From a virus, in IMG/VR virus record IMGVR_UViG_3300034101_003554, positions 1 through 64,000 of that record: a stretch of 64,000 nt of DNA. One strand, given 5' to 3'. Each line of letters opens with the position of its first letter. The first letter of the stretch is position 1. Both the position numbers and the translations under genes were made by a program. Positions 40,758 through 55,488 of the stretch are shown here, piece by piece. The notes beneath the pieces were generated by a model, which was not told the origin of the DNA, did not search any database, and worked only from the letters and a program-made list of their open reading frames with translations.

Positions 40758-40822
40758 AATTTCACTTGACAAACCAAAGTATATATTTTATACTTTCAAA
40801 ACAAATTCAAAAACAGAATATT

Positions 40823-42226
40823 ATGAACTTCTTAGACGCATTACAGACAGAAGATACTTTAACTGAAAATGGTATGGTTACAAATTCATCAACTCTTAAC
40901 GAGTGTGTGAATCTATTCTTTACTATTGGAGCAATGAGAGGACAAGACAAAGAAAGATTGTTAAGTCTATTCTCAAAGGCTTTCATTGAGAGTCCTAAAA
41001 CTGCATTGCGTATATTATTTTGGGCAAGAGATGTTCGTGGTGGTGCTGGTGAAAGACAAATATTCCGTGATATAATCCAACTCTTAGCAGAGGTGGCACC
41101 AAAAGTATTGGCAAAGAATATTAAATTCATCCCTGAATTCGGTCGTTGGGACGATCTTACAGTCCTATTCAACACAAAAGTGAATGACGATGCGATTGAC
41201 ACAATAGTACAAGGTTTAGAAGCCAAAAATGGACTATGTGCAAAGTGGATGCCAAGAAAAGGAGTTATTTTTAACTCAATCAGGAAGGTTATGGGTCTTA
41301 CACCAAAATCATTACGTAAAACTTTGGTTGTTCTTTCCAAAACGGTCGAGCAAAAGATGTGTGCTAACGAGTGGACAAATATTGAATACTCAAAAGTACC
41401 ATCTTTGGCTATGGCTCGATACACCAAAGCGTTCTCTAAACACAATTTAATTGGTTTTGGAGAATACTTGGAATCATTGAAAAAAGGTGAGACCAAAGTA
41501 AATGCTGGGGCTGTATATCCATATGATGTTATTAAAACCTTGGAACAAGGTGTCAAAGATTTGGCAATAGAACAATGGAAAGCTCTCCCCAACTTTATGG
41601 AAGGAAGTACTGAAAGAATTTTACCAGTAGTTGATGTATCAGGTTCAATGATTAATTTAGCCGGTAACAATAGTAATCTAACTTGTTTGGATGTCGCAGT
41701 ATCATTGGGATTATATATTTCAGAAAGAAATGAAGGTTCTTTTAAAGACTCTTTCATTACATTCTCTGAGAGACCGCAATTACAAAAGTTGAGAGGTAAT
41801 CTATATGATAGATACACACAACTACGTGTAGCTGAATGGGGTATGAGTACAAACTTGGAGTCTGTGTTCAAATTGATTTTAAACCAATCAATTAAACACA
41901 ATGTACCTCAAAGTGAGATGCCGACTAAAATCCTTATCTTATCAGATATGGAATTTAATCAAGCAACTGGTCGTAATAATTCCGCAATTCAAATGATTCG
42001 TGAAGAATATGAGAATAGTGGATATCAACTACCTGGTATTATCTTTTGGAACATACAATCGAGAGGAGATAACTTCCCTGTTCGTTTTGATGAAAGTGGG
42101 ACAGCGTTAATATCTGGTTTTAGTCCTTCAATCTTGAAGTCAATTCTTGGTGGAAAAGAACTATCACCAGTATTAATTATGACCGAAACCATTGAGTCCG
42201 AAAGATACAAGATGATAGAAGTTTAA
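40823..42226 (+). CDS. DUF2828-type TROVE/Ro60-like helical domain plus vWA protein
   Basis: TENG, RDVRGGAGER, FGRWDDL, CAKWMPR; vWA MIDAS-like DVSGSM, STN, SDMEF, FWN. Confidence 0.85.
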   Translation: MNFLDALQTEDTLTENGMVTNSSTLNECVNLFFTIGAMRGQDKERLLSLFSKAFIESPKTALRILFWARDVRGGAGERQIFRDIIQLLAEVAPKVLAKNIKFIPEFGRWDDLTVLFNTKVNDDAIDTIVQGLEAKNGLCAKWMPRKGVIFNSIRKVMGLTPKSLRKTLVVLSKTVEQKMCANEWTNIEYSKVPSLAMARYTKAFSKHNLIGFGEYLESLKKGETKVNAGAVYPYDVIKTLEQGVKDLAIEQWKALPNFMEGSTERILPVVDVSGSMINLAGNNSNLTCLDVAVSLGLYISERNEGSFKDSFITFSERPQLQKLRGNLYDRYTQLRVAEWGMSTNLESVFKLILNQSIKHNVPQSEMPTKILILSDMEFNQATGRNNSAIQMIREEYENSGYQLPGIIFWNIQSRGDNFPVRFDESGTALISGFSPSILKSILGGKELSPVLIMTETIESERYKMIEV

Positions 42227-42233
42227 AAAAAAT

Positions 42234-42365
42234 GGAAAAATTGGTTTAAAAGGAATGATTACTGCAAAGTTAACACAACAAATCAATGAGGGGGGTTAGT
42301 CTCACTTTCCTAATCGCACGGGAATAAATTACTAACCAAAAACCCATTCTGAAACCAATTTTTCC
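42234..42365 (+). ncRNA. Putative TROVE-associated small RNA 1
   Basis: Closing stem ggaaaaattggttt/aaaccaatttttcc; inner ggaatg/cattct followed by aTTACTGCAA. Confidence 0.5.
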
Positions 42366-42419
42366 TATTTTTTCTTGACTTAATGAAACTTTTAAATTAA
42401 ATTTACGTTATATAGAACA

Positions 42420-42480
42420 AAGGATAGATTCAGCAAATTAAAATATCAAATTTAGTCAAATTGAACAAAAACTATCCTGA
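42420..42480 (+). ncRNA. Putative TROVE-associated small RNA 2
   Basis: aggatag/ctatcct stem, aTTCAGCAA, A-run before the 3' strand. Confidence 0.55.
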
Positions 42481-42487
42481 CAATTAA

Positions 42488-42551
42488 GGTTATAACGAAT
42501 GAGTTCAGCAACTTAAAAAAGACAGCATATCTTAAAAAATCATTCCGAACC
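42488..42551 (+). ncRNA. Putative TROVE-associated small RNA 3
   Basis: ggtt/aacc and gaatga/tcattc stems, gTTCAGCAA, A-run. Confidence 0.55.
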
Positions 42552-42595
42552 AAACTTTTTAATAATTTAGTAATATTTATAAACAAATAACAAAA

Positions 42596-42691
42596 ATGAG
42601 AACATCGATAAACCATATTAGTAATTCAGTACAACCGCAATTTAAAAATTGTTGGTCAGCGGATTCTTATGGTTCAGGTGGAATCTCGTGA
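42596..42691 (+). CDS. Leader peptide of tRNA cluster 1 (MRTSINHISNSVQPQFKNCWSADSYGSGGIS)
   Basis: A-rich start; codons 4-21 all match cluster-1 tRNAs; followed by a terminator. Confidence 0.8.
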   Translation: MRTSINHISNSVQPQFKNCWSADSYGSGGIS

Positions 42692-42719
42692 TGGTAAAAA
42701 AAATATTAATTTTTTATAC

Positions 42720-42752
42720 AAACCCTGGACAAAAGACGTTCAGGGTTTTTTT
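42720..42752 (+). terminator. Attenuator terminator of tRNA cluster 1
   Basis: aaccctggac/gttcagggtt stem plus T7; its 5' arm can alternatively pair with gttcagg at 42672-42678. Confidence 0.85.
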
Positions 42753-42753
42753 G

Positions 42754-42765
42754 TGTTCTTTGACA
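42754..42765 (+). promoter_or_regulatory. boxA-like antitermination element
   Basis: TGTTCTTTGACA versus rrn boxA TGCTCTTTAACA, just before the first tRNA. Confidence 0.6.
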
Positions 42766-42782
42766 TCGTTGGTAAAATATAA

Positions 42783-42855
42783 TCCCCCTTGGTATAAAGG
42801 TTGATTACATCAGATTTTGAATCTGAGGATGGTGGTTCAATTCCATCAGGGGGAA
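42783..42855 (+). tRNA. tRNA-Gln(TTG)
   Basis: Cloverleaf; tcaga-tt TTG aa-tctga. Confidence 0.9.
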
Positions 42856-42904
42856 CAATTTAAAGTGGTTAAATTTGACCACTTAAAAAAAAATATGCAA
42901 TATT

Positions 42905-42933
42905 GGAACTTTAAGGGATGTGGGATGGTTATA
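42905..42933 (+). promoter_or_regulatory. ECF-sigma-like promoter
   Basis: GGAACT-N16-GGTTATA. Confidence 0.6.
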
Positions 42934-42963
42934 ATAATGTAACACACTTAAAAAAATAATAAA

Positions 42964-43125
42964 ATGGAAATGAAAAATCTAACTGGAGCTGAAAAAGTAC
43001 TTTACAAAGCAACTTATGAATTCTTTCTTAATGTTGTAAAAGTTTCTGATGAATGTGCTCATAATGAAGCAATCAATAAGATTGACAAAACTAGAAAGTT
43101 GGCTAAAAAAGTATCTCGTTACTAA
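42964..43125 (+). CDS. Small hypothetical protein (53 aa)
   Basis: MEMKNLTGAEK..., downstream of the ECF-like promoter. Confidence 0.6.
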   Translation: MEMKNLTGAEKVLYKATYEFFLNVVKVSDECAHNEAINKIDKTRKLAKKVSRY

Positions 43126-43141
43126 AAAACTTGATAAAACA

Positions 43142-43173
43142 TTTGGAAATAAGAATAAAGGATTGTAATTTTG
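43142..43173 (+). promoter_or_regulatory. Bacteroidota-type promoter
   Basis: TTTG-N20-TAATTTTG. Confidence 0.7.
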
Positions 43174-43250
43174 TGGGAGAGTAAGGAAAGGTCGTAGGTA
43201 GCACTGTCCACAACCAGCCTTAAACGTGGTGGATACTTACTCTAAATTAT

Positions 43251-43326
43251 GGTGATGTTGCCAAGTTGGTCAAGGCGAACGACTGAAAATCGTTTTATAC
43301 CAGTTCGAATCTGGTCATCACCACCA
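43251..43326 (+). tRNA. tRNA-Phe(GAA)
   Basis: Cloverleaf, encoded CCA. Confidence 0.92.
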
Positions 43327-43337
43327 AACAATTATAT

Positions 43338-43412
43338 GTGGTATGTACCCCAACTGGTAGAGGGGCATCATTGTGGATGATGTATGTGTGGGTTCAAATC
43401 CCATCATACCAC
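43338..43412 (+). tRNA. tRNA-His(GTG)
   Basis: G-1:C73 pair; catca-tt GTG ga-tgatg. Confidence 0.92.
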
Positions 43413-43422
43413 CAAACAAATT

Positions 43423-43509
43423 GGAAAGTTAAGCTCGGCGGCCCGAGTCTACGTCTTGAAAACGATAGGTACAATTGTATTGTATGGGGATCGACACCTC
43501 AACTTTCCG
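43423..43509 (+). tRNA. tRNA-Ser(TGA)
   Basis: Long variable arm, G73; irregular D and T loops. Confidence 0.8.
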
Positions 43510-43519
43510 CAACAAATTT

Positions 43520-43592
43520 AGTCCCATAGTTCAATGGATTAGAACCGAACAATACGAATGTTCAAATACCTGTTCGAATCGGGTTGGGACTA
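43520..43592 (+). tRNA. tRNA-Arg(ACG)
   Basis: gaaca-at ACG aa-tgttc. Confidence 0.88.
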
Positions 43593-43601
43593 CAAACAAT
43601 T

Positions 43602-43688
43602 GGAGGATAAAGTAATCAGGGTCGTTACCACCGCCTGCTAAGCGAGTGGCACCAAGTATGGTGTGGGGTTCGTGTCCTCTGTCCTCCG
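43602..43688 (+). tRNA. tRNA-Ser(GCT)
   Basis: Long variable arm, G73. Confidence 0.82.
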
Positions 43689-43801
43689 CAGAAAAATATT
43701 AATAAGATTAGAGCAGTTGAGTTCATAACTCAAAGGAATGCAGACAGTGGAGATGAGCGACCCACCTAATCATATTAAATGAAGAAAAATATTCCAAAGT
43801 G

Positions 43802-43833
43802 TTTGGAAATTAGAAAATGAAATCGTAATTTTG
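43802..43833 (+). promoter_or_regulatory. Bacteroidota-type promoter
   Basis: TTTG-N20-TAATTTTG. Confidence 0.7.
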
Positions 43834-43842
43834 TGATACAAT

Positions 43843-43972
43843 AGTCCTGTGGCGAAAGTTAAGGGTAGAGTGAAGATTGAATGTTCAGACACTCCTTAAT
43901 ACTAGGATTGGAGCGAAAGGTCTAACATAAACAATATGTAGCTTAATACAAGTTCGAATCTTGTCAGGACTA
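43843..43972 (+). ncRNA. tRNA-shell RNA 1 (130 nt)
   Basis: agtcctg/caggact-A acceptor stem plus T-arm; unrelated interior. Confidence 0.75.
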
Positions 43973-43994
43973 CTAAAAATTAAAAACTAAAATT

Positions 43995-44171
43995 ATGGAC
44001 ACACATTATTGGGTAAGATTTGAGATTAGAATTGAAACTATCAACAATAGTTTAAACGCTGATGAACAAAAAGAAATCTTTGACTATATAAAATCAAGAA
44101 TTGACGGTAGAGATGACATAGATAGACCTAAAAAGTTGGATTGTTGTTTTGTCAATATGAGAAAATTTTAG
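43995..44171 (+). CDS. Small hypothetical protein (58 aa)
   Basis: MDTHYWVRFE..., A-rich start. Confidence 0.6.
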   Translation: MDTHYWVRFEIRIETINNSLNADEQKEIFDYIKSRIDGRDDIDRPKKLDCCFVNMRKF

Positions 44172-44184
44172 ATAAGTTAAATAT

Positions 44185-44295
44185 AGTCCTATGGCGGAAT
44201 TGGTAGACGCACTCCCCCTAGATAGGGAGAATATTGTTTCGACGCAATTAACCAGGTGATGGCATCTAATACAGGTTCGAATCCTGTCAGGACTA
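44185..44295 (+). ncRNA. tRNA-shell RNA 2 (111 nt)
   Basis: Leu-like D-arm, 8-nt anticodon-position loop, about 40-nt extra region. Confidence 0.75.
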
Positions 44296-44320
44296 CAAAA
44301 ATAAAAATAAAATTAGGAAT

Positions 44321-44554
44321 ATGAAAAAGTCACTTGAAGAAGTAAAGAAATTGAATACGAAAAATCTTCTACGTTTTTATAGAGCAGAACGTATAAGATT
44401 TTATGGTAGTGGATACTGGTGTAGTTGTGGGTGTGGTGAAATGATATGGGAAGCAAGAACATCACAAGCAGATATGGAACAAAAATATAATGAACATAAA
44501 GATTTTTTGAATGTAATTAAAGCAGAACTCAATACAAGAGAACATATTTCTTAA
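44321..44554 (+). CDS. Small hypothetical protein with CxCxC
   Basis: 77 aa. Confidence 0.7.
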   Translation: MKKSLEEVKKLNTKNLLRFYRAERIRFYGSGYWCSCGCGEMIWEARTSQADMEQKYNEHKDFLNVIKAELNTREHIS

Positions 44555-44575
44555 AATTGTTTGCGAAACTTTTAA

Positions 44576-44696
44576 AGTCTTGTGGCGGAAGTGATAGACG
44601 CTATTGTAAAAGGGTTCACATCCCAAAGATGAGCAAGTGTAATTGCTACATAGATAATGTCATATTATCATACAGGTTCGAATCCTGTCAGGACTA
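44576..44696 (+). ncRNA. tRNA-shell RNA 3 (121 nt)
   Basis: agtcttg...acaggttcgaatcctgtcaggacta. Confidence 0.75.
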
Positions 44697-44721
44697 TTTT
44701 TTAACTTTAAAACAAATTATT

Positions 44722-44976
44722 ATGAAATCTTTACAAGAACTTTACGCAAACACACCAATTCAAGTGATTGTTGATTTCTATATTCAAAATAACACAGAAG
44801 TATGCCTACTCGAAGGTAAAATTCATAACGGTGACTTGTCTGCAATTGAAGAATTAGAAACCCTTGTTGCCAAAATCCTAAATTATGAGATTGAGAATTT
44901 TGAAGGTAAAGAGTGTTTTGAATCAGCATACCTGAAAAGAATGAAAATGTTGGTTAGAACTAAACAAATTCTTTAA
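44722..44976 (+). CDS. Hypothetical protein (start moved to MKSLQE)
   Basis: Upstream part of the ORF is the tRNA-shell. Confidence 0.7.
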   Translation: MKSLQELYANTPIQVIVDFYIQNNTEVCLLEGKIHNGDLSAIEELETLVAKILNYEIENFEGKECFESAYLKRMKMLVRTKQIL

Positions 44977-44992
44977 AAAAAAATTAAAACTT

Positions 44993-45204
44993 AGTCCTGT
45001 GGCGGAATTGGTAGACGCACATTAGCTGAGTGATGCAATAAGCAAGTACCCCTAATTAAAAGCCTAACGGATTTTACCCACTAGAACAATAAAAATCCTC
45101 AGATTGGGTTTAGGGTCTTACCAAACTCTCCGAAAACAGAGTAGGAGCTGTTAATAACCAAGATGGTAAGTGTTTATTTACAGGTTCGAATCCTGTCAGG
45201 ACTA
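44993..45204 (+). ncRNA. tRNA-shell RNA 4 (212 nt)
   Basis: Perfect shell with about 160-nt insert. Confidence 0.75.
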
Positions 45205-45218
45205 CAAAAAATTAAAAA

Positions 45219-45368
45219 ATGTTAGTAATTATTGGTCTTTTATTTTTGATAATTGGAATCTTATTCTTAATTTTGTCTTACAAAACAAAGAACTCAGACT
45301 TGTTTATAGTTGGAATTATATTTCTAATTGTTCTTTTGTTTGGATTTATATATGGTTTAATAATATAG
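45219..45368 (+). CDS. Small two-helix membrane protein (49 aa)
   Basis: MLVIIGLLFLIIG...; read manually. Confidence 0.5.
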   Translation: MLVIIGLLFLIIGILFLILSYKTKNSDLFIVGIIFLIVLLFGFIYGLII

Positions 45369-45436
45369 GTGTAGCTCAGAGGTAGAGTGCTAGTTTTGGG
45401 AACTAGTGGTCGCTGGTTCAATCCCAGTCACCTATA
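45365..45436 (+). tRNA. tRNA-Pro(TGG)
   Basis: ctagt-tt TGG ga-actag. Confidence 0.9.
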
Positions 45437-45449
45437 CAAGATTTTTAAA

Positions 45450-45523
45450 GGTTCTATAGCTCAATTGGTTAGAGCACCCGACTCATAATCGGTAGGTTCT
45501 AGGTTCAAGTCCTAGTGGAACCA
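45450..45523 (+). tRNA. tRNA-CAT, probably Ile2 (lysidine type)
   Basis: CAT anticodon; body resembles Ile2 tRNAs; adjacent to Ile(GAT); identity inferred. Confidence 0.8.
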
Positions 45524-45538
45524 CAACAATTTTAACAA

Positions 45539-45613
45539 TGTCCTGTAACTCAGTTGGTTTAGAGTATTCGTCTGATACGCGAAAAGTCGTGAGTTCGAGC
45601 CTCACCAGGACAA
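45539..45613 (+). tRNA. tRNA-Ile(GAT)
   Basis: ttcgt-ct GAT ac-gcgaa. Confidence 0.9.
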
Positions 45614-45621
45614 CAACAAAT

Positions 45622-45694
45622 GTCTCAGTAGCTCAGTGGTAGTAGCCCTTGACTGTTAATCAAGTTGTCGTAGGTTCGAATCCTACCTGGGACG
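45622..45694 (+). tRNA. tRNA-Asn(GTT)
   Basis: cttga-ct GTT aa-tcaag. Confidence 0.92.
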
Positions 45695-45710
45695 CAAATT
45701 TTAATAAATT

Positions 45711-45938
45711 ATGGTTAATGTAAAAATTGGTGAATTTAAGGTTGGTGATAAGTTGTTTATTGATTATAGTGAAAATAATCCAAACAATAAACACATCGAA
45801 ATTAGAGCAATTGTGGATATGGAAGTGGTGATTTATTTGGATGAAAAAAATAACTACCATATGGAACCAATTCATTACTTCAATGTGTTATGTAGATGTA
45901 ACTCACTTAAAAAAATAACAAATGAAACGGACAATTAG
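45711..45938 (+). CDS. Hypothetical protein
   Basis: 75 aa. Confidence 0.65.
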   Translation: MVNVKIGEFKVGDKLFIDYSENNPNNKHIEIRAIVDMEVVIYLDEKNNYHMEPIHYFNVLCRCNSLKKITNETDN

Positions 45939-46077
45939 AAAACCAAGTTCATCCAAGTTTTATGAAATGCTTAGAAATAAGTACAACAACCACATTAAGA
46001 AACAAGAAAATGAAATGGAAGATTCTACAAATTAGATTCCAACCTAAAAAATTTAATTAACAATATATAATTTTCAT

Positions 46078-46587
46078 ATGAAAAAAGAGTTTTTATTTAA
46101 TGATAACATTATTGATTTTGAATTTGACGAAGTAATAGATAAAAAAATAAATGTTAAGGTATTTCACTATTTCAGTAATAATCTTTTATTTGAAAAAATT
46201 GAAGATAGAATAATTTGTCTTAAAGGTATTGGTAAATTATTCTTTCAAGAAGGATTCCCAATTTCATTATCTATTTCAGTATTAAAAGAACAAGGGGTTG
46301 AGGTTAGTATATTACACGTTGCTGATGAATGTTTAAAAAATGGGTGGTCACCAATAACAACATATAATAAATTAAAATCTGACTTTGAAGAAGATATTGA
46401 CAAAGAAAATCATTATGATTTACATTTATTAAAAAAATTTTGTGAATCAAATTATGAAGACCAAAGAGAAATGATATTTGAATATCTGTTTAAATGCAAA
46501 ACTGATGATGTCAGAAATAAAAAAAATGAAAATCCAATAGACTGGTTACAATTACTTGTAACTAGTGGGGCTAAAAATAAACTTTAA
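46078..46587 (+). CDS. Hypothetical protein with an AlaRS-like GFP helix motif
   Basis: KLFFQEGFPISLSISVLKEQGVEV. Confidence 0.65.
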   Translation: MKKEFLFNDNIIDFEFDEVIDKKINVKVFHYFSNNLLFEKIEDRIICLKGIGKLFFQEGFPISLSISVLKEQGVEVSILHVADECLKNGWSPITTYNKLKSDFEEDIDKENHYDLHLLKKFCESNYEDQREMIFEYLFKCKTDDVRNKKNENPIDWLQLLVTSGAKNKL

Positions 46588-46596
46588 CAAGAAAAT

Positions 46597-46671
46597 GACC
46601 CTGTAGCTTAGCTGGTTTAAAGCACAATACTTTTAATATTGGGAGCGGGAGTTCAAATCTCCCCAGGGTCA
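46597..46671 (+). tRNA. tRNA-Lys(TTT)
   Basis: caata-ct TTT aa-tattg. Confidence 0.9.
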
Positions 46672-46868
46672 CAACACAATAAGTTACGAAAGGTGTTATT
46701 AGAAAATAGTAGACATATTTTTTGACATTATGGGTCTGAAAATAAAAATTAAGGATGGTACGAAAGTTCAGGACTTTGACTGTAAACTAGGAAAGGTAAC
46801 TAAGATACGCGGTCTCGGTTCTATTGGAGTACAATTATCAGTATAGCCCAATCATTCTTTTATAAATA

Positions 46869-46953
46869 GTCCTTATGGTGTAATGGTTAAACATCCCACT
46901 CTTACAAAGTGGAGACGAGAAGTATAATCCTAGTTCGAATCTAGGTAAGGACA
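46869..46953 (+). tRNA. tRNA-Val(TAC) with expanded variable region
   Basis: ccact-ct TAC aa-agtgg; 16-nt variable region. Confidence 0.82.
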
Positions 46954-46982
46954 CATTAAATAATTTTTAAATTACAAAAACG

Positions 46983-47231
46983 ATGAAAAAAATATTATTC
47001 CTTGGATTAATTTCTGTATTATTCCTTAGTTGTCAAAGAGAAGGTATAGAAGAACTAAAAACAGATAATGCGAATTATAACGTTGAGCTTCTATTTAAAG
47101 TTGATGGATGTAAGGTCTATCGATTTTGGGATAAAGGATACAAGTATTTTACAACTTGTGATGGATCCGTGACTCATAAACTAAGTGGAAAACACCCCAA
47201 AGATTTGGGAATACAGACAATCGTGAAATAA
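46983..47231 (+). CDS. Lipoprotein (DUF4884-like)
   Basis: Lipobox FLSC; VELLFKVDGCKVYRF. Confidence 0.75.
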   Translation: MKKILFLGLISVLFLSCQREGIEELKTDNANYNVELLFKVDGCKVYRFWDKGYKYFTTCDGSVTHKLSGKHPKDLGIQTIVK

Positions 47232-47467
47232 AGATTTGAACAATTAAGGGACCGAGCCTGCCTACAATTTCGGTGTGAGGTGCTAGTAGGTAATTGTTCT
47301 TTATGTTATAATAGTACCACGAGGCATCCCATAAGAACTGCTCACTACTGTGGTCTTGTTGCTTGTAAACGAATAGCCCAAGGTATAAGTTATGAAGCTT
47401 AACTCAACCTATCCCCCACTGACGAGTGGGGTGAAGTTGGGGGATTTCATATATTTATAGTAAAAAA

Positions 47468-47926
47468 ATGATGAAAGATTTAAGAATACGTATTAAAACA
47501 ATTTTAAAAGAAGAATTTGAAAATTATACTATAGTATATCGTGGTATTGGAGATAGAATTAACGCTACCTATGGTAAAGTATCTGATGATGGAATGGGTG
47601 TATTTTGGACAGATAATTTAACTATGGCCAAATGGTTTGCTGGACTTATTGATTATTCTGTTGATACTTATAGATATGAAAATATAAAAGGTTCTAAGGG
47701 TAAGATTTTAACTAAAGAAATAAAATTTGAAAATCCATATGTTGTTAATTCAGATGATGAAGATTATGACTCATTTCAAGTTTATATGGATGAAATATAC
47801 AAATTCGGTGGGGTTGACAAATATAAAGAAATGTTAATTGAAAAAAATTATGATGGTATCATATTAAGAAATTGTTCAACAAATTACTATGAAAATGGAA
47901 CTTATGATATCTTTATTGAGTTATAG
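47468..47926 (+). CDS. ADP-ribosyltransferase-like protein with LKE leader
   Basis: VYRG ... GVFWTDN..MAKWFA ... YDGIIL. Confidence 0.55.
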   Translation: MMKDLRIRIKTILKEEFENYTIVYRGIGDRINATYGKVSDDGMGVFWTDNLTMAKWFAGLIDYSVDTYRYENIKGSKGKILTKEIKFENPYVVNSDDEDYDSFQVYMDEIYKFGGVDKYKEMLIEKNYDGIILRNCSTNYYENGTYDIFIEL

Positions 47927-47948
47927 GTAATATAAAAAGAAACAATAG

Positions 47949-48033
47949 GGTTGGGTGGCCGAGTTGGTTAAGGCACTAGTCTGCAAAACTATCGAATGAA
48001 AATTCATCGTGGGTTCGAATCCCTCCCCAACCT
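47949..48033 (+). tRNA. tRNA-Cys(GCA) with long variable arm
   Basis: U73; atgaa/ttcat extra stem. Confidence 0.85.
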
Positions 48034-48042
48034 CAAACAAAT

Positions 48043-48115
48043 GTAGATGTAGCTCAATTGGTAGAGTTGCTGATTCCAAACCAGCCGGTTGGGGGTTCGA
48101 GTCCCTCCATCTATG
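48043..48115 (+). tRNA. tRNA-Trp(CCA)
   Basis: gctga-tt CCA aa-ccagc. Confidence 0.9.
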
Positions 48116-48146
48116 CAAATTTTATCAACAATTAAAACTATTTATT

Positions 48147-48467
48147 ATGGTAAGGGATTACATAATCGAAACATTAACAAAAATCAAAGAACAAGATGAG
48201 AAGGTACACAAGCTCTATACTATGGGAGTTGATTTACTTGACTTTGACAACACCATTTCGCAACTTGAGAAGTCCATTCCGACCATCCTCAGAAAAGAAA
48301 AAGACGAACAATACGGATGGATACAGGATTTAGTTGGTTGGTGGTTGTATGAAAAAATTGAAAAAAAGATTTGGCACGATAAAATTGAATTTAATGTTGA
48401 AAGTGTGGAAAATTTTACCGACTATTTGATAAGAGAGTATGGAACAAATGACATACCAACAAATTAA
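48147..48467 (+). CDS. Hypothetical protein (start moved to MVRDY)
   Basis: Upstream part of the ORF overlaps tRNAs. Confidence 0.75.
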   Translation: MVRDYIIETLTKIKEQDEKVHKLYTMGVDLLDFDNTISQLEKSIPTILRKEKDEQYGWIQDLVGWWLYEKIEKKIWHDKIEFNVESVENFTDYLIREYGTNDIPTN

Positions 48468-48469
48468 TT

Positions 48470-49102
48470 ATGGCTTATATTGAAAGTAATTTTTTCCCTT
48501 TAAAGGTATATGTTCGAAATGAATATCTATATCAAAATAAGAAGGGATTTGGTGAATTTACTGAGGGTGTTATAATCTCAATTAGATGTTTACCAGGACA
48601 AGCTGCACTATTCCAAGTATTATTTAATAATGGTGTTATGAGAGATAAACTTCCATCTCACGCATTATTAACTGAACCCAAATCACCTAATGTTGATTTA
48701 CCATTCCATTATCTTCAAATATGGAATTGTTTTTCATACAATTTCTCGGTACATCATTTAAGTTATATCTATGATACCAAAGTTTCAGTCTTTATGAAAG
48801 ATAAGAAATGGTATGATGGAAGTTATTATGCCACAATAAATTGGGGTTCTAGTGATTTGAATAGTGATTTTACCTTGGCTGAGGATCCAATGGAACATAA
48901 ATCACATCACATAATACTACTGAATAATGGCCAAATTGCCCTACAACCAAATAATAGAATAAAATGGGCAGAACCATCCTTTGTCACAAAATCTTTCCCT
49001 GAGAAGCCAGATTATTTGGTGAATAAGGATTATTATAATTGTGAGGGGTTCGAGAAATGGCAAACTGAGGATTCTGATTATATGTTTTATGATAATAATT
49101 AA
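48470..49102 (+). CDS. Hypothetical phage protein
   Basis: 210 aa; EHKSHH..L.NGQIALQPNNRI. Confidence 0.8.
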   Translation: MAYIESNFFPLKVYVRNEYLYQNKKGFGEFTEGVIISIRCLPGQAALFQVLFNNGVMRDKLPSHALLTEPKSPNVDLPFHYLQIWNCFSYNFSVHHLSYIYDTKVSVFMKDKKWYDGSYYATINWGSSDLNSDFTLAEDPMEHKSHHIILLNNGQIALQPNNRIKWAEPSFVTKSFPEKPDYLVNKDYYNCEGFEKWQTEDSDYMFYDNN

Positions 49103-49105
49103 GAT

Positions 49106-49489
49106 ATGTTTTTATATAAAGTAGAAGTTAAAATAGCAACTAATCCTGAAATGGACTTAGGTTTATTCACAAAAGAATTTATCCCAAAAGGAACTATAGT
49201 TTGGGAATTCGTGGAAGGTGTGGATATTAAAATGGATGAAACGACATTCAATAAATTGAACGAAGCTCAAAAAGAATTTTTTGAAAAATATGGGTGGAAG
49301 GAAGATGATGGGTTTTATTATTCCTCTTGTGACTTAACTAACTTTATTAATCATAGTTACAATCCAAATTTAGATGTTGTGGGGGAAATAATAATTTCAA
49401 ATAAAGATATCCAAATTGGGGAAGAATTATTTGAAGATTATAGTCAATTTGATACTGAGTTTCATACTTATAAAAATGAATTTATTTAA
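49106..49489 (+). CDS. SET-domain protein (lysine methyltransferase-like)
   Basis: GLFTKEFIPKGT, NFINHSYNPN, GEELFEDY. Confidence 0.85.
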   Translation: MFLYKVEVKIATNPEMDLGLFTKEFIPKGTIVWEFVEGVDIKMDETTFNKLNEAQKEFFEKYGWKEDDGFYYSSCDLTNFINHSYNPNLDVVGEIIISNKDIQIGEELFEDYSQFDTEFHTYKNEFI

Positions 49490-49498
49490 CAAAAAAAT

Positions 49499-50014
49499 AT
49501 GACACCAATGGTAATTGTAAATTTCTATAAACCCTATGATACGACTTGGGAACAACTCCAACTAATGGCATTGGATAAAATTGCCGAACACGAAAAAGAA
49601 ACAAGCGAAGTTGAATTTGGGGATGTCTCCGTTCAACAACAATTTGATGATTATCGTGCAGCTTGTTTTCAAGGGTTAAAAACATTTATAATGCAAGTTC
49701 TAAATGAATGGGGGACTGAAAACATCTTGGTGTTTAATGATAAATTCTATAAGAAATTTGAACATATGGAAATGGAGGGTAGATTAAAAACTTATACAAC
49801 TCCAAATGTTTTCAAAACATCAAAGGAATTATTTAAATGTTTAAAGAAAGAAAAGTTTCAATTAGAACCAGATGATTTTGATTTTATTCACGAAACTTTT
49901 TCAAGTGCTGACGATGTTGTATGTAATATATTCGCGTTTGAATATGAATTAAAAGAAATTGATGATGACAAAGATTGGTTGGATGAGAACGGATTTGGTG
50001 ATATTTTAGAATAA
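49499..50014 (+). CDS. Hypothetical protein
   Basis: 171 aa ending DENGFGDILE. Confidence 0.75.
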   Translation: MTPMVIVNFYKPYDTTWEQLQLMALDKIAEHEKETSEVEFGDVSVQQQFDDYRAACFQGLKTFIMQVLNEWGTENILVFNDKFYKKFEHMEMEGRLKTYTTPNVFKTSKELFKCLKKEKFQLEPDDFDFIHETFSSADDVVCNIFAFEYELKEIDDDKDWLDENGFGDILE

Positions 50015-50030
50015 AAAAAAAGATAATAAT

Positions 50031-50270
50031 ATGAAAACAATAGGCGTATTAGAAGCATTGAAAGATGAAACAATTAAAAAAGGAGATAAAATAATTATTG
50101 AACTTATTGTTGATGAAATAGATATTGAAAGTATGTACCCATTATCTGCATTTTGTTTTAATCAATATGATGAAATATCAAAAACTAATTATTTTAAATT
50201 GTCATGGAGTACTAAAATAAAAATAAAAGACATAAATGATGAGAACGGATTTGGGGATATTTTAGAATAG
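50031..50270 (+). CDS. Hypothetical protein sharing its C-terminus with the upstream gene
   Basis: Ends DENGFGDILE (duplicated DNA). Confidence 0.65.
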   Translation: MKTIGVLEALKDETIKKGDKIIIELIVDEIDIESMYPLSAFCFNQYDEISKTNYFKLSWSTKIKIKDINDENGFGDILE

Positions 50271-50272
50271 TT

Positions 50273-50590
50273 ATGAAAAAGAAAAAAAATATATTTACAA
50301 AAGAAATTAAGGTAGCCGATGCTAAGACATCTGTTAGTGAATTAATAAGAGAAACATTAATTAACTTCAGTTGGGGTTTCTTTGGTAATTCAATAGTTGT
50401 ATTTATGGCCAAAGAAATTGATCTTGCCGTATTGATTAATTTTTTATTATATTATATCTTAATATCTTATATTGTTAATCGTGCGAAATATGAAAGTAAT
50501 TTTGGTAAATTCATTGTTTTACCTGGTTCAGCGGCATTAGGAGCATTCACAGGATATAAAGTAGCACAAATTATTTCACAATTTTTGTAA
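50273..50590 (+). CDS. Membrane protein
   Basis: Three hydrophobic segments. Confidence 0.75.
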   Translation: MKKKKNIFTKEIKVADAKTSVSELIRETLINFSWGFFGNSIVVFMAKEIDLAVLINFLLYYILISYIVNRAKYESNFGKFIVLPGSAALGAFTGYKVAQIISQFL

Positions 50591-50617
50591 CTAATTTAAT
50601 ATAATATATTTATTAGT

Positions 50618-51106
50618 ATGAAACTTAATGAAGAAATAAAACGAATAAAAGGTTTAATGTTGGAAAACTCCGACCCTTTCACTATTTCAACAGCGGGTAG
50701 TATTAATATAACACCTGGTCTTCACATATCTATTAATAATGGTGAAGTTAAGATGGGTCATATTAATATGATTGATTTTGATAATGGAAAACATTATGAT
50801 TACTACCTACCAAGACTTTTGTATAATGTTAATGAATATTGTAAATCAAATTGTACTGAAAATTTATTCAATAATAATAACTCAATATATCTACACGATT
50901 TAGAAATTTTTAAACCTTACAGAGGTAAAGGTCTAAGTAATCGTCTAATGGACGAATGTCATAAATTAGGAAAAAATATGGGAGTTGACTACATTATTCT
51001 AATAACTGAATGTAATAATTATGTAGCCCAAAACTTATATAAAAAATATGGGTACGAAATTTATAGTTCAGATGGTATTGAAGACTTATTTTACAAAAAA
51101 ATTTAA
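50618..51106 (+). CDS. GNAT acetyltransferase with LNEE leader
   Basis: YRGKGLSNRLM ... NYVAQNLYKKYGY. Confidence 0.85.
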   Translation: MKLNEEIKRIKGLMLENSDPFTISTAGSINITPGLHISINNGEVKMGHINMIDFDNGKHYDYYLPRLLYNVNEYCKSNCTENLFNNNNSIYLHDLEIFKPYRGKGLSNRLMDECHKLGKNMGVDYIILITECNNYVAQNLYKKYGYEIYSSDGIEDLFYKKI

Positions 51107-51201
51107 AATAAAGACTCAACAACTTGATTAATTTTTGTAACAAACTTGACCTTTTGTATTATATCGTTATATTTAATAAAAAAATAGTAAAAACTTCACA
51201 A

Positions 51202-51273
51202 ATGAAACACAATCTCTATATGGACTTAACAACTAGAGCTGAGGGTAGAAATCCTCGGATGGAGATGGTATGA
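51202..51273 (+). CDS. Leader peptide of tRNA cluster 2 (MKHNLYMDLTTRAEGRNPRMEMV)
   Basis: Codons 5-16 all match cluster-2 amino acids; followed by a terminator. Confidence 0.8.
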   Translation: MKHNLYMDLTTRAEGRNPRMEMV

Positions 51274-51300
51274 TATAAGGTTTTAATTGTTAATAAAATC

Positions 51301-51339
51301 AAATCCATCTTCCTAAAAAAAAGATGGATTTTTTTTTTT
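51301..51339 (+). terminator. Attenuator terminator of tRNA cluster 2
   Basis: aaatccatctt/aagatggattt plus long T-tract; alternative pairing with ggagatgg at 51261-51268. Confidence 0.85.
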
Positions 51340-51346
51340 GAGAGTG

Positions 51347-51378
51347 TTTGAAAATGTGAATTAGTAATTGTATCTTTG
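51347..51378 (+). promoter_or_regulatory. Bacteroidota-type promoter followed by boxA-like TGTTCATTGAAA
   Basis: TTTG-N20-TATCTTTG. Confidence 0.7.
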
Positions 51379-51410
51379 TGATGTTCATTGAAATTGAGGG
51401 AAAAATATTT

Positions 51411-51485
51411 GGTACCATAGTTTAACGGCAAGAATATAAGGTTGTCACTCTTATGGTAGGGGTTCGATTCCCCTTGGTACCGCCA
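51411..51485 (+). tRNA. tRNA-Asp(GTC)
   Basis: Cloverleaf, G73, CCA. Confidence 0.9.
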
Positions 51486-51504
51486 AAAAAAAGTTTTAAA
51501 AGTT

Positions 51505-51534
51505 GGAACTAAATGAGATGAAGGTTGGTTTATA
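51505..51534 (+). promoter_or_regulatory. ECF-sigma-like promoter
   Basis: GGAACT-N16-GGTTTATA. Confidence 0.6.
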
Positions 51535-51559
51535 ATAATGTAACTTAAAAAAATAGATT

Positions 51560-51706
51560 ATGACAAACTTTATGATAAACTTTATTATTCTTGCTATTTT
51601 TATAATGCTTTTGGGTTTTATTGGTAACTATATCATAAAAAAATATCCAGATTCTTGGGTAGCAAAATGGTGGGATGATATGACTGATATTGGTCATTGG
51701 TGGTAA
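51560..51706 (+). CDS. Small membrane protein (48 aa)
   Basis: Read manually, after the ECF-like promoter. Confidence 0.55.
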   Translation: MTNFMINFIILAIFIMLLGFIGNYIIKKYPDSWVAKWWDDMTDIGHWW

Positions 51707-51890
51707 ATTAAAATAATATCTATGTCACGAGATTAAGATGTGACTTACGTTCTAAGGAGTTTACTTATTGTCAATTAGGGCGGACGAAGGCAACATAAGT
51801 TATATTATGGTGACTTGATATTCACCATAACGAATACAAGATATCAAAAAGAGAAGTGGAGAGTTCTTATTCAAAACTTCTCTTTATTTT

Positions 51891-52173
51891 GCCTAGGTGG
51901 TGTAATGGTAGCCACGCAAGACTTAAAAATTTGAGTGCTATTGGTGAAAACCTTTAAGTAGAACTCCGTAAATTCGGTGAAGCCTTTAAAATGGTAATAC
52001 CGAGCCAAGTTCAAGAAATTGAAAAGGTGTAGAGACTAGACACGGAGAACCTAAGTCGAAAGATATGGTTAAGGTATAGTCCAGACCACAAACTGAAAAG
52101 GTGGTGAAAACCATAGTGGTAAGAAAATCTTGTGACCAGTAAGGTCGTGCGGGTTCGAGTCCCGCCCTGGGTA
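51891..52173 (+). tRNA. tRNA-Leu(TAA) interrupted by a group I intron; exons 51891-51924 and 52124-52173
   Basis: Spliced arm caaga-ct TAA aa-tcttg; long variable arm. Confidence 0.9.
51925..52123 (+). mobile_element. Group I intron (trnL-UAA type), 199 nt, no ORF
   Basis: P1 with U.G pair; P AAATTCGGTGAA, Q AATACCGAGCC, R GTGTAGAGACTAGAC, S AAGGTATAGTCC; terminal G. Confidence 0.9.
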
Positions 52174-52195
52174 CAAAAAAAAAGTTTAAAAAAGA

Positions 52196-52227
52196 TTTGG
52201 AATTAAGAAAATCAAATCGTAATTTTG
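52196..52227 (+). promoter_or_regulatory. Bacteroidota-type promoter (duplicated at 52371-52402)
   Basis: TTTG-N20-TAATTTTG inside an approximately 58-bp direct repeat. Confidence 0.7.
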
Positions 52228-52236
52228 TGAGACAAT

Positions 52237-52348
52237 AGTCAGGTGGCGAAATGGTAGACGCACATCCGCAGGTGATTTAGTTTGAGGATACAGCGGCAGT
52301 CGAGGTCACAAACATATACAAATATAGGTTCGAATCCTATCCTGACTA
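52237..52348 (+). ncRNA. tRNA-shell RNA 5 (112 nt)
   Basis: agtcagg/cctgact-A, Leu-like D-arm, T-arm. Confidence 0.75.
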
Positions 52349-52417
52349 CAAAAAAAAAGTTTAAAAAAGATTTGGAATTAAGAAAATGAAATCGTAATTT
52401 TGTGACACAATAAAAAC

Positions 52418-52490
52418 GCACCATTCGACAAGGGGTATAAGTCACCTCCCTTTCACGGAGGAGTCACGGGTTCGAATCCCGTATGGTGTA
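52418..52490 (+). tRNA. tRNA-Glu(TTC)
   Basis: cctcc-ct TTC ac-ggagg. Confidence 0.92.
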
Positions 52491-52542
52491 CAAATCTCAG
52501 AAGTAATTAATCTGGGGCTGAGAGGTTCGAAACTCACGGAAA

Positions 52543-52642
52543 TGATTATGGTGTAGGCGCACGGAAAGATAAAGTATGAGAATGGTAAGTACCCATTAAA
52601 GAAATTGACATCAGGATTAAGGTTCGAATCCTTATTAATCAA
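52543..52642 (+). ncRNA. Degenerate tRNA-shell-like element
   Basis: tgatta/taatca stem plus taagg-ttcgaat-cctta T-arm. Confidence 0.35.
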
Positions 52643-52651
52643 CAAACATTA

Positions 52652-52723
52652 TGCAAGGAAGGGCAACGGTCGTCCGCTAGGCTCATAACCTAGAAGCTGT
52701 GGGTTCGATTCCCACCCTTGCGT
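52652..52723 (+). tRNA. tRNA-Met(CAT), possibly initiator-like
   Basis: ctagg-ct CAT aa-cctag; non-Watson-Crick 1:72 pair. Confidence 0.8.
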
Positions 52724-52732
52724 CAAACAAAT

Positions 52733-52807
52733 TGCAAGATGGACTGGAGGTGGTTCCAGCTCGGTCTCATAAGCCGTACCATGTGGGTTCGACTCCCACT
52801 CTTGCAA
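52733..52807 (+). tRNA. tRNA-Met(CAT)
   Basis: cggt-ct CAT aa-gccg. Confidence 0.82.
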
Positions 52808-53079
52808 CTAAACAACTTAACTAATGGCGGTAACTGATTAGTAAAATAATCGAACTAAAGCAATCTAATGGAAGTTGAGTAGCGTCTAATATAGTAGTTT
52901 TATAATACTTGCACTACAAATGGGTATTAAATTAACAGGTTGGGAATCTGACTACATAATATTAGTGTTAGGTGGACTTAAATAAGTGAACACCTGTGTA
53001 ACGGGTTGAAAACTTTACGATTGAAATGTCGACCATTTGGGTTAAGTTCTATTTGTAGTAGAACTTGTAAGTTGTAAAA

Positions 53080-53165
53080 GGGTGTCTATCCAAATTGGTG
53101 AAGGAAGCTGTCTGTAAAACAGTTGCCACGTGCTAAACTTGGGGGTTCGAATCCCTCGGCACCCA
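53080..53165 (+). tRNA. tRNA-Tyr(GTA)
   Basis: gctgt-ct GTA aa-acagt, long variable region. Confidence 0.88.
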
Positions 53166-53377
53166 CAAAAGAAATGAAACCTTACATAGGATGGATTAGC
53201 ACCATTGAAAGAGAACTTGGCTCTCATAGGATCGCAACCTAAATCGAGAGTAATAATGACCCAAGTTGTTATGTAGGAGACCCTGCTCTACTGTGCACGG
53301 TATCAGGCTATGGGGAACAAACCATCGTAAAACTCTTGCCCATATAATACTTATGGAAGGACTTTCATTTCTAATTT

Positions 53378-53452
53378 GCAGTAATAGCTCAATGGTAGAG
53401 TTCTTGTCTTCCAAACAAGATGTTGCGAGTTCGAGTCTCGCTTACTGCTCCA
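53378..53452 (+). tRNA. tRNA-Gly(TCC)
   Basis: U73, CCA. Confidence 0.92.
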
Positions 53453-53468
53453 AATTTAAAAATTCATT

Positions 53469-53681
53469 ATGAATCAGTCTGAATTTAGAAATCTTAGAAC
53501 TGGGGATAAAATCCATATTAAGTCTCGTGATGGTTTATATACCTTCTTAACAAAAGACTTTATAACTGGTGAAATTCATATAACTTGTAAAAGATGGAAA
53601 TATGAAGATTCCCCAATCAGAGTAACAAGTTTTGATGATTTCAAATGTTTGGCTGGTGGATTATGGAGAAAAATTATGTAA
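53469..53681 (+). CDS. Hypothetical protein
   Basis: 70 aa. Confidence 0.65.
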   Translation: MNQSEFRNLRTGDKIHIKSRDGLYTFLTKDFITGEIHITCKRWKYEDSPIRVTSFDDFKCLAGGLWRKIM

Positions 53682-53754
53682 TAGGAGAAAGTAAGTCGGT
53701 TGGTGTATAGCTTCCTTACGTCTAAAATTTAAGCACAATTACATAATACAAAAA

Positions 53755-53831
53755 GGGGGATTAGCTCATTCAGCAAGAGCACTTGTTTTGCACACAAGAG
53801 GTGGTCGGAGCAAAGCCGACATCCTCCACCA
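53755..53831 (+). tRNA. tRNA-Ala(TGC)
   Basis: G3.U70 pair, CCA; atypical T-loop. Confidence 0.9.
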
Positions 53832-53860
53832 AAAAATAAACGTTGTTTTAAATTTAATTT

Positions 53861-54466
53861 ATGAAAAAATTTTTAGTATTTTTAGTATTATTTGTATTAT
53901 TGACATCTTGGTCATATACACCCCCACGTAGGGTATTATATATCGGTGATAGTTTAACCTGTGCTCCTGGTGGGTGGCAGGATCAAGTTTCAAAACATTT
54001 TGGATATCAAAGTCTCAATCTAGCAAAAGGTGGTGTTAGAACGGATTATATGAGAACGACAATGAATGCTTGTTTTAAAAAAGATTCAGCTTTCTCTCAG
54101 GTATTCATTTATGGTGGATGTAACGATGCTTTTTCTATGGTAGATTTACAAGGGGCGGTGAATAACATTCAGATGATGGTTGATAGTTGTAATAGAAGAG
54201 GAATTGAACCTATTGTAATTGTGGGTTTTAATCCAGCTCAAGTAACAACAAAGACTGTGTATGACGCAGAAACAACCAAGAGATGTGTTGGAAGATACAT
54301 TGAGTTTCAAAAACTAATGGTTAAAGAAAAAACTGGATTAAAGAATTGTAAAATAATTCCTATGGACACTACAATGTTTTATAGTGATACTTGGGATGGA
54401 ATTCACTTCGCACCTTCTGGACATAAGAAATTTTCTACTTGGGTTATAAATAATATGGAAAAATGA
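53861..54466 (+). CDS. Secreted SGNH/GDSL hydrolase
   Basis: Signal peptide; IGDSLT, GGCND, DGIH; resembles the SGNH domain of 32355..33932. Confidence 0.88.
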   Translation: MKKFLVFLVLFVLLTSWSYTPPRRVLYIGDSLTCAPGGWQDQVSKHFGYQSLNLAKGGVRTDYMRTTMNACFKKDSAFSQVFIYGGCNDAFSMVDLQGAVNNIQMMVDSCNRRGIEPIVIVGFNPAQVTTKTVYDAETTKRCVGRYIEFQKLMVKEKTGLKNCKIIPMDTTMFYSDTWDGIHFAPSGHKKFSTWVINNMEK

Positions 54467-54714: not shown

Positions 54715-54720
54715 TTATTT

Positions 54721-55373: not shown

Positions 55374-55488
55374 TGGTTGTGACACCTAATAATTCACAAG
55401 TAGTGGTTGACACTTAGAATGTTACCTGACTTTAAGGTTTGGAATAGAAAAACCGAAAACTTTTAAAACTTTTAAAACTTTGAATATT

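Follow-up and report, generated by a model that had tools for sequence, protein, structure and literature searches.

We analysed a stretch of 64,000 nucleotides, hereafter called the window, which comprises the first 64 kb of a 141-kb viral contig from IMG/VR (record IMGVR_UViG_3300034101_003554; genome G000). The contig is about half complete according to the CheckV estimate, has a G+C content of ~29%, and recurs in lake-water metagenomes. All transfer RNA (tRNA) genes of this phage lie within positions 42783-58705. The first tRNA cluster is preceded by a short open reading frame (ORF) and an intrinsic terminator, and this unit (42596-42765), a candidate leader-peptide attenuator, is the subject of the present analysis. 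Its parts are the following:

42596-42691, plus strand: leader ORF 1 (P0001), with an ATG start, 31 codons and a TGA stop (42689-91)
42605-42658, plus strand: codons 4-21 of this ORF, the putative sensing run; all 18 codons are decodable by cluster-1 tRNAs
42596-42617, plus strand: region 1, the 5' strand of a long leader hairpin, including AACCATA (42611-42617); predicted to pair with region 2 if the RNA is free of ribosomes
42668-42688, plus strand: region 2, G-rich, formed by the last codons of the ORF, with TATGGTT and GTTCAGG; able to pair with region 1 or with the 5' arm of the terminator (predicted antiterminator)
42720-42752, plus strand: intrinsic terminator (regions 3 and 4), with an 11-bp stem (42720-42748), a 7-nt loop and seven U (42746-52)
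42783-48116, plus strand: tRNA cluster 1, encoding Gln, Phe, His, Ser-TGA, Arg-ACG, Ser-GCT, Pro, CAT (Ile2-like), Ile-GAT, Asn, Lys, Val, Cys and Trp tRNAs

Codon content and alternative structures of the leader

A preliminary description of this locus had listed a 31-codon ORF followed by a terminator and tRNA-Gln. All three are present (42596-42691, 42720-42748 plus the U-tract, and 42783, respectively), and tRNA-Gln starts 31 nt past the end of the terminator. Default ARAGORN and Rfam searches identified 13 tRNAs in 42783-48116. A 14th, tRNA-Ser(TGA) at 43423-43510 on the plus strand, scores below the default thresholds and was recovered with the ARAGORN threshold lowered to 85%. We accepted this gene, which the preliminary description had included, because it fills the gap between tRNA-His and tRNA-Arg(ACG) and keeps its place in four relatives (G001, G003, G004 and G007). 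Once 14 tRNAs are counted, the claimed match of 18 out of 18 codons in the run holds. As described earlier, both Ser boxes and both Ile types (ATA and ATT) are represented in the run, together with one codon each for Cys, Trp, His, Phe, Pro, Val and Lys; Arg-ACG is the sole cluster-1 tRNA without a codon, and the run contains no cluster-2 amino acid at all.

The cluster-1 amino acids account for 53% of the codons in the long ORFs of the phage and for ~60% of random codons at this composition. A cluster-1 run of at least 18 codons was found in 3 of the 551 ATG ORFs of 20-45 codons present in the six frames of the 141-kb genome, leader 1 being one of them. When the bases of leader 1 itself were shuffled and kept free of stop codons, such a run was reached in 2.5e-4 of the trials. 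Therefore, the G-poor composition is not the cause of the run, and the permutation test suggested in the preliminary description turned out significant. The other two reading frames of leader 1 contain no such run. Counted over the whole ORF, leader 1 specifies 18 of the 20 amino acids (P ~0.06), a value too weak on its own.

The relatives used for comparison were taken from IMG/VR via the DUF2828 gene located upstream of the leader, and some of them have their tRNAs split into other blocks. A DNA search of GenBank phages yielded no relative of the region, the matches being restricted to tRNA and DUF2828 fragments. The ATG and the reading frame are kept in 11 distinct homologues of leader 1 despite insertions and deletions. 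Between close pairs, 13 synonymous and 6 non-synonymous changes were counted in codons 2-21, versus 7 and 15 in the tail. In the deep lineages, 7-10 of the 20 codons from 2 to 21 are replaced, in many cases by chemically radical substitutions, and nearly all of these stay within the cluster-1 class; the exceptions are codons 2-3 of the window's own leader. Within the close family, the peptide stretch Gln-Pro-Gln-Phe-x-Asn-Cys-Trp is strongly kept.

The minimum-energy fold of 42590-42765 is far more stable than that of shuffled sequences (z = -4.1) and consists of one long hairpin over the ORF, a small A/U hairpin and the terminator. The preliminary description had proposed two mutually exclusive helices, and both were recovered: AACCATA and TATGGTT pair in the minimum-energy fold, and GTTCAGG (42672-78) duplicates the 3' arm of the terminator and is able to pair with CCTGGAC of its 5' arm. 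In the window and in four diverged homologues, region 2 (codons 25-29, containing GGTT-nn-GGG) is predicted to pair with codons 3-7 in the free RNA. If the 5' part is masked, as by a stall at codon 8, 14 or 20, and the 3' arm of the terminator is not yet made, folding of the same five sequences pairs region 2 with the 5' arm of the terminator instead. The 1:2, 2:3 and 3:4 pairings are predicted in five leader-1 lineages and in the leader of the second cluster (see below), and in each lineage the alternative foldings came out as the preliminary description had suggested.

The lineages differ in the partners of region 2 but preserve its pairing. Of the four positions that distinguish the ORFs of L009 and L010, two constitute a compensatory exchange of G-C to A-U between codon 4 and codon 27 that supports the 1:2 helix. 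The nucleotides of region 2 are kept while the encoded residue varies (Ser, Leu or Trp). Across 10 homologues the terminator is pairable in 100% of the cases and the 7-bp antiterminator in 97% of the cells, compared to 61-67% when it is slid by one column. As a control for the pairing of the 5' arm, the upstream RNA was shuffled; the count of paired bases did not discriminate, because C-rich arms also pair with shuffled G, and energies alone were consistently lower than in the shuffles. The codons inside region 2 are not class-restricted. Reaching as far as region 2 and no further, the run covers precisely those codons at which a stalled ribosome would leave the antiterminator exposed. The stop codon (42689-91) directly adjoins region 2, so that a finishing ribosome would be placed to mask it. 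One contig from an RNA library, spanning 42540-42752, ends at the last U of the terminator, a weak hint that shows neither regulation nor strand. The metatranscriptome contigs represent small shares, carry-over of DNA is possible, and coverage gaps as well as contig starts at 42459/42461 were given no weight.

A second unit of the same kind precedes tRNA cluster 2:

51202-51341, plus strand: sister unit, with leader ORF 2 (51202-51273, 23 codons), a terminator (51301-51331) followed by a U-tract, and tRNA-Asp at 51411

Leader 2 is unrelated in sequence to leader 1 and follows the same structural plan. Its codons 5-16, a 12-codon run, specify no amino acids other than the nine of cluster 2, each of which is represented. 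No cluster-2 run in the 551 small ORFs is longer, and shuffling with the composition of leader 2 preserved gave P=5e-4. The TTA codon of leader 2 is served by tRNA-Leu(TAA), whose exons lie at 51891-51928 and 52124-52174. The anticodon loop of this tRNA is interrupted by a 195-nt group I intron (Rfam RF00028, 62 bits), and the corresponding tRNA of G004 is intron-free.

Co-variation of leaders and tRNA blocks across phages

We compared 15 leader/block units from 8 genomes, in which the tRNA genes are differently partitioned into blocks. The leaders of the other genomes are referenced as L231:5967-6077:-, L230:15785-15886:-, L230:9126-9194:-, L229:927-1034:+, L234:18726-18803:-, L234:12655-12735:-, L234:3197-3283:-, L234:1120-1218:-, L235:8394-8501:-, L238:3880-3981:-, L240:5530-5613:-, L240:2432-2521:- and L237:4837-4977:-. 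Each of the 15 leaders carries a run of codons of its own block. In the multi-block genomes, the cognate block was the best match for 12 out of 12 leaders (probability by chance 1.3e-6), with scores near zero for non-cognate blocks, and when all blocks were ranked the cognate one came first of 15 for 14 of the 15 leaders. The probability of the longest run ranges from ~1e-10 to 5e-3 per unit, with the exception of G014 (L237:4837-4977:-). This genome has one block with nearly all tRNAs, and the first 33 codons of its leader hold all 20 amino acids (P ~0.003); it is an exception because such a block is non-discriminating. Leaders of different blocks show no sequence relation to each other.

The match extends down to the codon box (Ser AGY vs TCN, Leu TTR vs CTN, Arg CGN vs AGR), which bears out the co-variation of leader codons and tRNA content that the preliminary description had suggested looking for in related phages. 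The first block of G009 has a Tyr tRNA, and its Lys and Val tRNAs are located elsewhere; the first leader is composed accordingly, with an additional Tyr codon and a run free of Lys and Val. The further blocks of G009 and those of the complete genomes G010 and G013 compare with their leaders as follows:

G009, second block (Ser-TGA, Asp, Val, Thr, Lys, Ala, Gly, Leu-TAG): 13-codon run of those, with TCA for Ser and CTT for Leu
G009, third block (Leu-TAA, Glu, Arg-TCT, Met): run consisting solely of TTA, GAA/GAG and AGA
G010/G013, block Lys/Val/Ile/Ser/His: 11-codon run, only these five
G010/G013, block Arg-ACG/Leu/Gln: 10-codon run, only these three
G010/G013, block Phe/Glu/Asp/Ala: 11-codon run, only these four
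G010/G013, block Pro/Gln/Lys/Gly/Tyr/Thr: 17-codon run, only these six
G010/G013, block Cys/Val/Leu: run dominated by these three

One leader contained apparent Ser and Ala mismatches, and a relaxed search then found tRNA-Ser(GCT) and tRNA-Ala in its block. For one further cluster, G013b, no leader was found in the stretch examined, and an HNH-like ORF lies directly upstream of it. The geometry of the units is kept as well: in 12 units from distant phages, 23-29 nt separate the stop codon from the terminator, and the U-tract is followed by the first tRNA after 8-31 nt in most units. The terminators of three units were placed by hand.

Surroundings of the unit

The region 5' of leader 1 and the junction between the terminator and tRNA-Gln contain the following additional features:

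40766-42226: DUF2828/DUF7788 gene upstream of leader 1, encoding a vWA/TROVE-like, putative RNA-binding protein
42375-42410, plus strand: promoter-like site, TTGAC, 18 nt, TAAATTTA (a Bacteroidota-type TAnnTTTG-like -7 element); kept in relatives
42412-42595, plus strand: structured, conserved 5' untranslated region of ~180 nt, containing hairpins with TTCAGCAA loops, as seen in the alignment of relatives
42755-42766, plus strand: conserved motif GTTCTTTGACAT between the terminator and tRNA-Gln; kept in relatives

The DUF2828/DUF7788 gene and leader 1 are separated by ~370 nt of conserved non-coding sequence. The promoter-like site is located ~185-220 nt 5' of the leader ORF, and distant relatives have equivalent TTGAC-N17/18-TAnnTTTG sites 5' of their leaders. 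RNA-library contigs cover 42459-42612. A scan for sigma-70-type promoters gave no more matches than shuffled sequences and was therefore uninformative on internal promoters. TTGAC-N17/18-TAnnTTTG is the pattern of the predicted leader promoters. Shine-Dalgarno sites were found for just 2 of 126 phage genes, whose upstream sequence is A-rich, and the start contexts of leaders 1 and 2 are likewise A-rich and devoid of a Shine-Dalgarno sequence. Together with the promoter pattern, this lack of Shine-Dalgarno sites with A-rich upstream sequence points to a Bacteroidota host.

The hairpins with TTCAGCAA loops belong to the conserved stretch 3' of the DUF2828 gene (window positions 42234-42551). At 42287/42288, the close relatives L002-L008 and three RNA-library contigs carry 52-54 extra nucleotides, a piece that the window is without. 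The extra sequence resembles a tRNA T-arm joined to a closed, acceptor-like hairpin, which suggests a putative permuted tRNA mimic of the YrlA/Y-RNA kind.

The motif GTTCWTTGAMAT has two exact matches in the window, 42755-42766 and 51383-51394, each 17 nt before the first tRNA of its cluster. In the relatives G001 and G003 it stays with tRNA-Asp despite an insert of ~500 nt. The motif is not present in several distant units. The stretch 42753-66 resembles boxA of E. coli, a NusB-NusE binding site located past the promoter of stable-RNA operons; the boxA label given in the preliminary description reflects a sequence likeness only. The motif may be a processing signal, a Nus-type site or a promoter. 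A scan of IMG/VR with the motif was discarded as a search tool: most of its 118 matches lay by chance inside unrelated genes, and few were relatives.

Besides its tRNAs, cluster 1 holds small ORFs and odd tRNA-like elements. Such elements, 107-213 nt long, were found in the window at 44185-44295, 44576-44696, 44993-45205, 52237-52348 and 57290-57403. They match the Rfam tRNA model weakly (33-41 bits), have a D arm of the tRNA-Leu type and a long insert past the anticodon arm, and are called by ARAGORN only with the intron option; the element at 44185 has an 8-nt anticodon loop. Three tRNAs, Val(TAC) at 46869-46954, Cys(GCA) at 47949-48034 and Thr(TGT) at 54721-54806, are 86 nt long and have long variable arms, which is unusual for these isotypes. 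The CAT tRNA at 45450 has its best match in tRNAs annotated as tRNA-Ile in E. coli genomes, which fits a predicted ATA-reading Ile2. A tRNA of L120 called 'Ile-TAT' was considered as its orthologue and dropped, being not alignable. In G002 (L097, 2000-7300 in the orientation used here), several kb of other sequence stand where its relatives carry tRNAs.

Proposed mechanism, competing explanations and known systems

The attenuator reading put forward in the preliminary description is supported by the anatomy of the unit, the codon match, the conserved potential for alternative pairings and the co-variation across phages. Taken together, we consider it highly probable that a ribosome-mediated (leader-peptide) transcription attenuator gates the first tRNA operon of this phage. 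We infer translation of the leader, the sign of the response and its trigger from this layout. Transcription would start near 42412, and the leader ORF would be translated while RNA polymerase proceeds. A ribosome that runs to the stop codon would cover region 2 (42668-88), so that the terminator (42720-52) forms and the tRNA genes stay silent. If the ribosome stalls within codons 4-21 for want of a scarce aminoacyl-tRNA, region 1 would be held open and region 2 left free to pair with the 5' arm of the terminator, and the polymerase would read through into tRNA-Gln and the rest of the cluster. If no ribosome is loaded, regions 1 and 2 would pair and the terminator would again form. Since the run has about one codon per tRNA of the operon, a shortage of any of these tRNAs should raise the output of the whole block. 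The result would be a negative feedback on the phage's own tRNA supply, in which sufficiency turns the block off. Possible triggers are a codon usage that does not fit the host, breakdown of host tRNAs in the course of infection, anticodon nucleases and amino-acid starvation, between which the sequence cannot tell.

Several observations weigh against this interpretation. Cluster 1 of G002 (L097) is without Phe, His, Ser, Arg, Asn, Lys, Ile-GAT and Val tRNAs and keeps only those for Gln, Pro, CAT, Cys and Trp. Its leader shows only four differences from that of L009, which keeps at least the Phe, His, Asn, Lys and Arg-ACG tRNAs. Because the G002 leader was kept after the loss of eight tRNAs, its tracking of the tRNA content must be slow or incomplete, the match decaying or lagging behind. 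The window's own leader has no CGN codon for Arg-ACG (L009 has CGC), and its codons 2-3 (AGA, ACA) are cluster-2 codons. Most tRNAs are represented by one codon only, whereas classical attenuators use tandem codons, and this may limit the sensitivity to each tRNA. The helices of antiterminator and terminator vary in the close family by one-sided (wobble) changes only, and no double compensatory change was seen. In G001 and G003, the ~500-nt insert mentioned above separates the leader-2 terminator from tRNA-Asp. If the motif at 42755-66 were a promoter of a phage polymerase, it could let the tRNAs be made independently of the terminator. Finally, a sensor of this kind cannot separate tRNA shortage from amino-acid starvation.

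This last point leads to a reading with the very same anatomy: a translated leader would be coupled to the terminator here too, but would report the fall of host translation capacity late in infection, as a timer opening the tRNA operons, or amino-acid starvation, and not tRNA shortage as such. A sensor based on stalling cannot separate these causes, and single codons per tRNA would suit a summed, global read-out. A global sensor, however, needs no block-specific codon sets. Because the codons are strictly partitioned between the leaders of one genome, each block appears to answer to its own tRNAs, and we regard the timer or starvation reading as unlikely. The ORF could also simply encode a small protein and be followed by a terminator of its own; the tRNAs would then be transcribed independently, for example from the conserved motif, and the codon match would have no regulatory meaning. 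The strongly conserved Gln-Pro-Gln-Phe-x-Asn-Cys-Trp stretch, the presence of a conserved motif between terminator and tRNA, and a promoter-like stretch past the terminator of KVP40-like phages would all be in line with such a gene. But it leaves unexplained why 14 of the 15 leaders fit their own block better than any other, why radical replacements respect the amino-acid class of the block, and why the match does not continue into region 2. Moreover, the leaders of different blocks are unrelated in sequence, and the 8-31 nt between U-tract and first tRNA leave no room for a separate promoter in most units. A small protein gene is therefore very unlikely.

Alternatively, the leader might act as RNA only, by T-box-like codon-anticodon sensing of tRNA or by binding a protein, with the open frame being incidental. 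Its strong structure (z = -4.1) and the vWA/TROVE-like, putative RNA-binding protein encoded upstream would agree with this. Yet no T-box or other Rfam family reaches threshold, the matched codons occur in one frame only, close pairs differ in the run mostly by synonymous substitutions, and the ATG, the frame and the 23-29-nt spacing from stop codon to terminator are kept across unrelated leaders, all of which makes a function as RNA alone scarcely plausible. It has to be considered, too, that the idea was formed from the same data and that 53-60% of random codons in this genome specify cluster-1 amino acids, so that the match could be a coincidence picked after the fact in AT-rich sequence. 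The shuffles (2.5e-4 for leader 1 and 5e-4 for leader 2) and the independent replication of the pattern by thirteen further units in other genomes reduce the probability of mere chance to a negligible level.

A lead to cultured phages comes from the DUF2828 gene, whose closest counterparts in GenBank phages are those of KVP40-like vibriophages (~49% identity). The vibriophages nt-1, KVP40, phi-Grn1, D482 and F86 share a conserved ORF of 37-38 codons that specifies 18-19 different amino acids, followed by a conserved terminator 28 nt past its stop codon. The tRNA array (~27 tRNAs in nt-1) starts ~85-125 nt past this terminator, with the promoter-like stretch in between. The presence of 18-19 of the 20 amino acids has a probability of ~0.05 and is weak evidence alone. 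In Vibrio phage nt-1 the ORF is located at L241:8967-9080, within a unit spanning L241:8967-9137:+, and it was also found in L242, L243, L244 and L245; at this locus, the annotation of KVP40 shows an ORF on the opposite strand. With these vibriophages, cultured systems and hosts are available for putting the idea to the test.

It has long been asked why phages carry tRNA genes and what use they make of them, and the regulation of these genes has hardly been addressed. If the model is correct, these would be the first tRNA genes under ribosome-mediated attenuation and the first attenuator sensing a dozen decoding species at once, in a direct feedback loop between decoding speed and tRNA supply. 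Tentatively, the concept may be extended further. The tRNA operons could form a modular, self-describing regulon in which each leader serves as a codon 'barcode' for feedback block by block, replacing depleted or nuclease-cut tRNAs; this might include the KVP40/nt-1 group, and leader codons might predict hidden tRNAs and assign ambiguous ones, such as the CAT tRNA reading ATA. We put this forward as a picture that may or may not hold in full. In practical terms, leaders of this kind would define the boundaries of tRNA operons from sequence alone. They also point to tRNAs missed by gene finders, as was the case for Ser-TGA in the window and, in a relative, for Ser-GCT and Ala, and their codons support identities such as that of the ATA-reading CAT tRNA. 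They could further be designed as sensors of tRNA availability, and they bear on the arms race around tRNA-cleaving defence nucleases.

A full-text literature search retrieved no description of leader-peptide control of tRNA genes, either in phages or in cells, and tRNA genes are not mentioned in a survey of attenuators (PMC2965389). Drug-inducible leader peptides of the ermC/cat type sense a general slowdown of translation (PMC2965389). They share with the unit described here the principle that a ribosome stalled on a short leader remodels the downstream RNA. In contrast to our unit, with its block-specific codons and an intrinsic terminator as target, they respond to antibiotic-bound ribosomes and act mostly on translation. 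T-box riboswitches also sense the status of tRNAs and choose between terminator and antiterminator upstream of translation-related genes, but they bind the uncharged tRNA directly through a specifier codon and the T-box sequence and involve no translation, whereas a conserved ORF is present here. No Rfam T-box match was obtained in 42200-44500, either at the gathering threshold or at E-values up to 10. Permissive E-values returned only sub-threshold noise, namely an rnk leader, a His leader on the wrong strand, and YrlA over tRNA-Phe/His.

The trp and his leaders (trpL, hisL) have the same layout, the same logic of ribosome position and a stop codon near region 2. The match to the Rfam His_leader family is sub-threshold and on the opposite strand, and neither sequence nor covariance models reveal any similarity. 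They respond to one amino acid each, compared to many in the phage leaders, and in the phage unit the tRNA would be at once what the operon makes and what the leader senses, which would allow direct feedback. Some enterobacterial leaders are multivalent: that of ilvGMEDA senses Ile, Val and Leu, and the thr leader senses Thr and Ile. These multivalent ilv and thr leaders are the nearest known systems. As in the phage units, a short translated leader is followed by an intrinsic terminator and exclusive 1:2, 2:3 and 3:4 pairings, and codons for more than one amino acid lead to read-through. They differ in that they regulate biosynthetic enzymes instead of tRNAs and rely on tandem runs of codons, while the phage leaders cover up to 12 or more amino acids, mostly with single codons. 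Furthermore, the phage leaders are encoded in several units per genome, and their codons coincide with the set of tRNAs encoded by the operon and change where its content differs.

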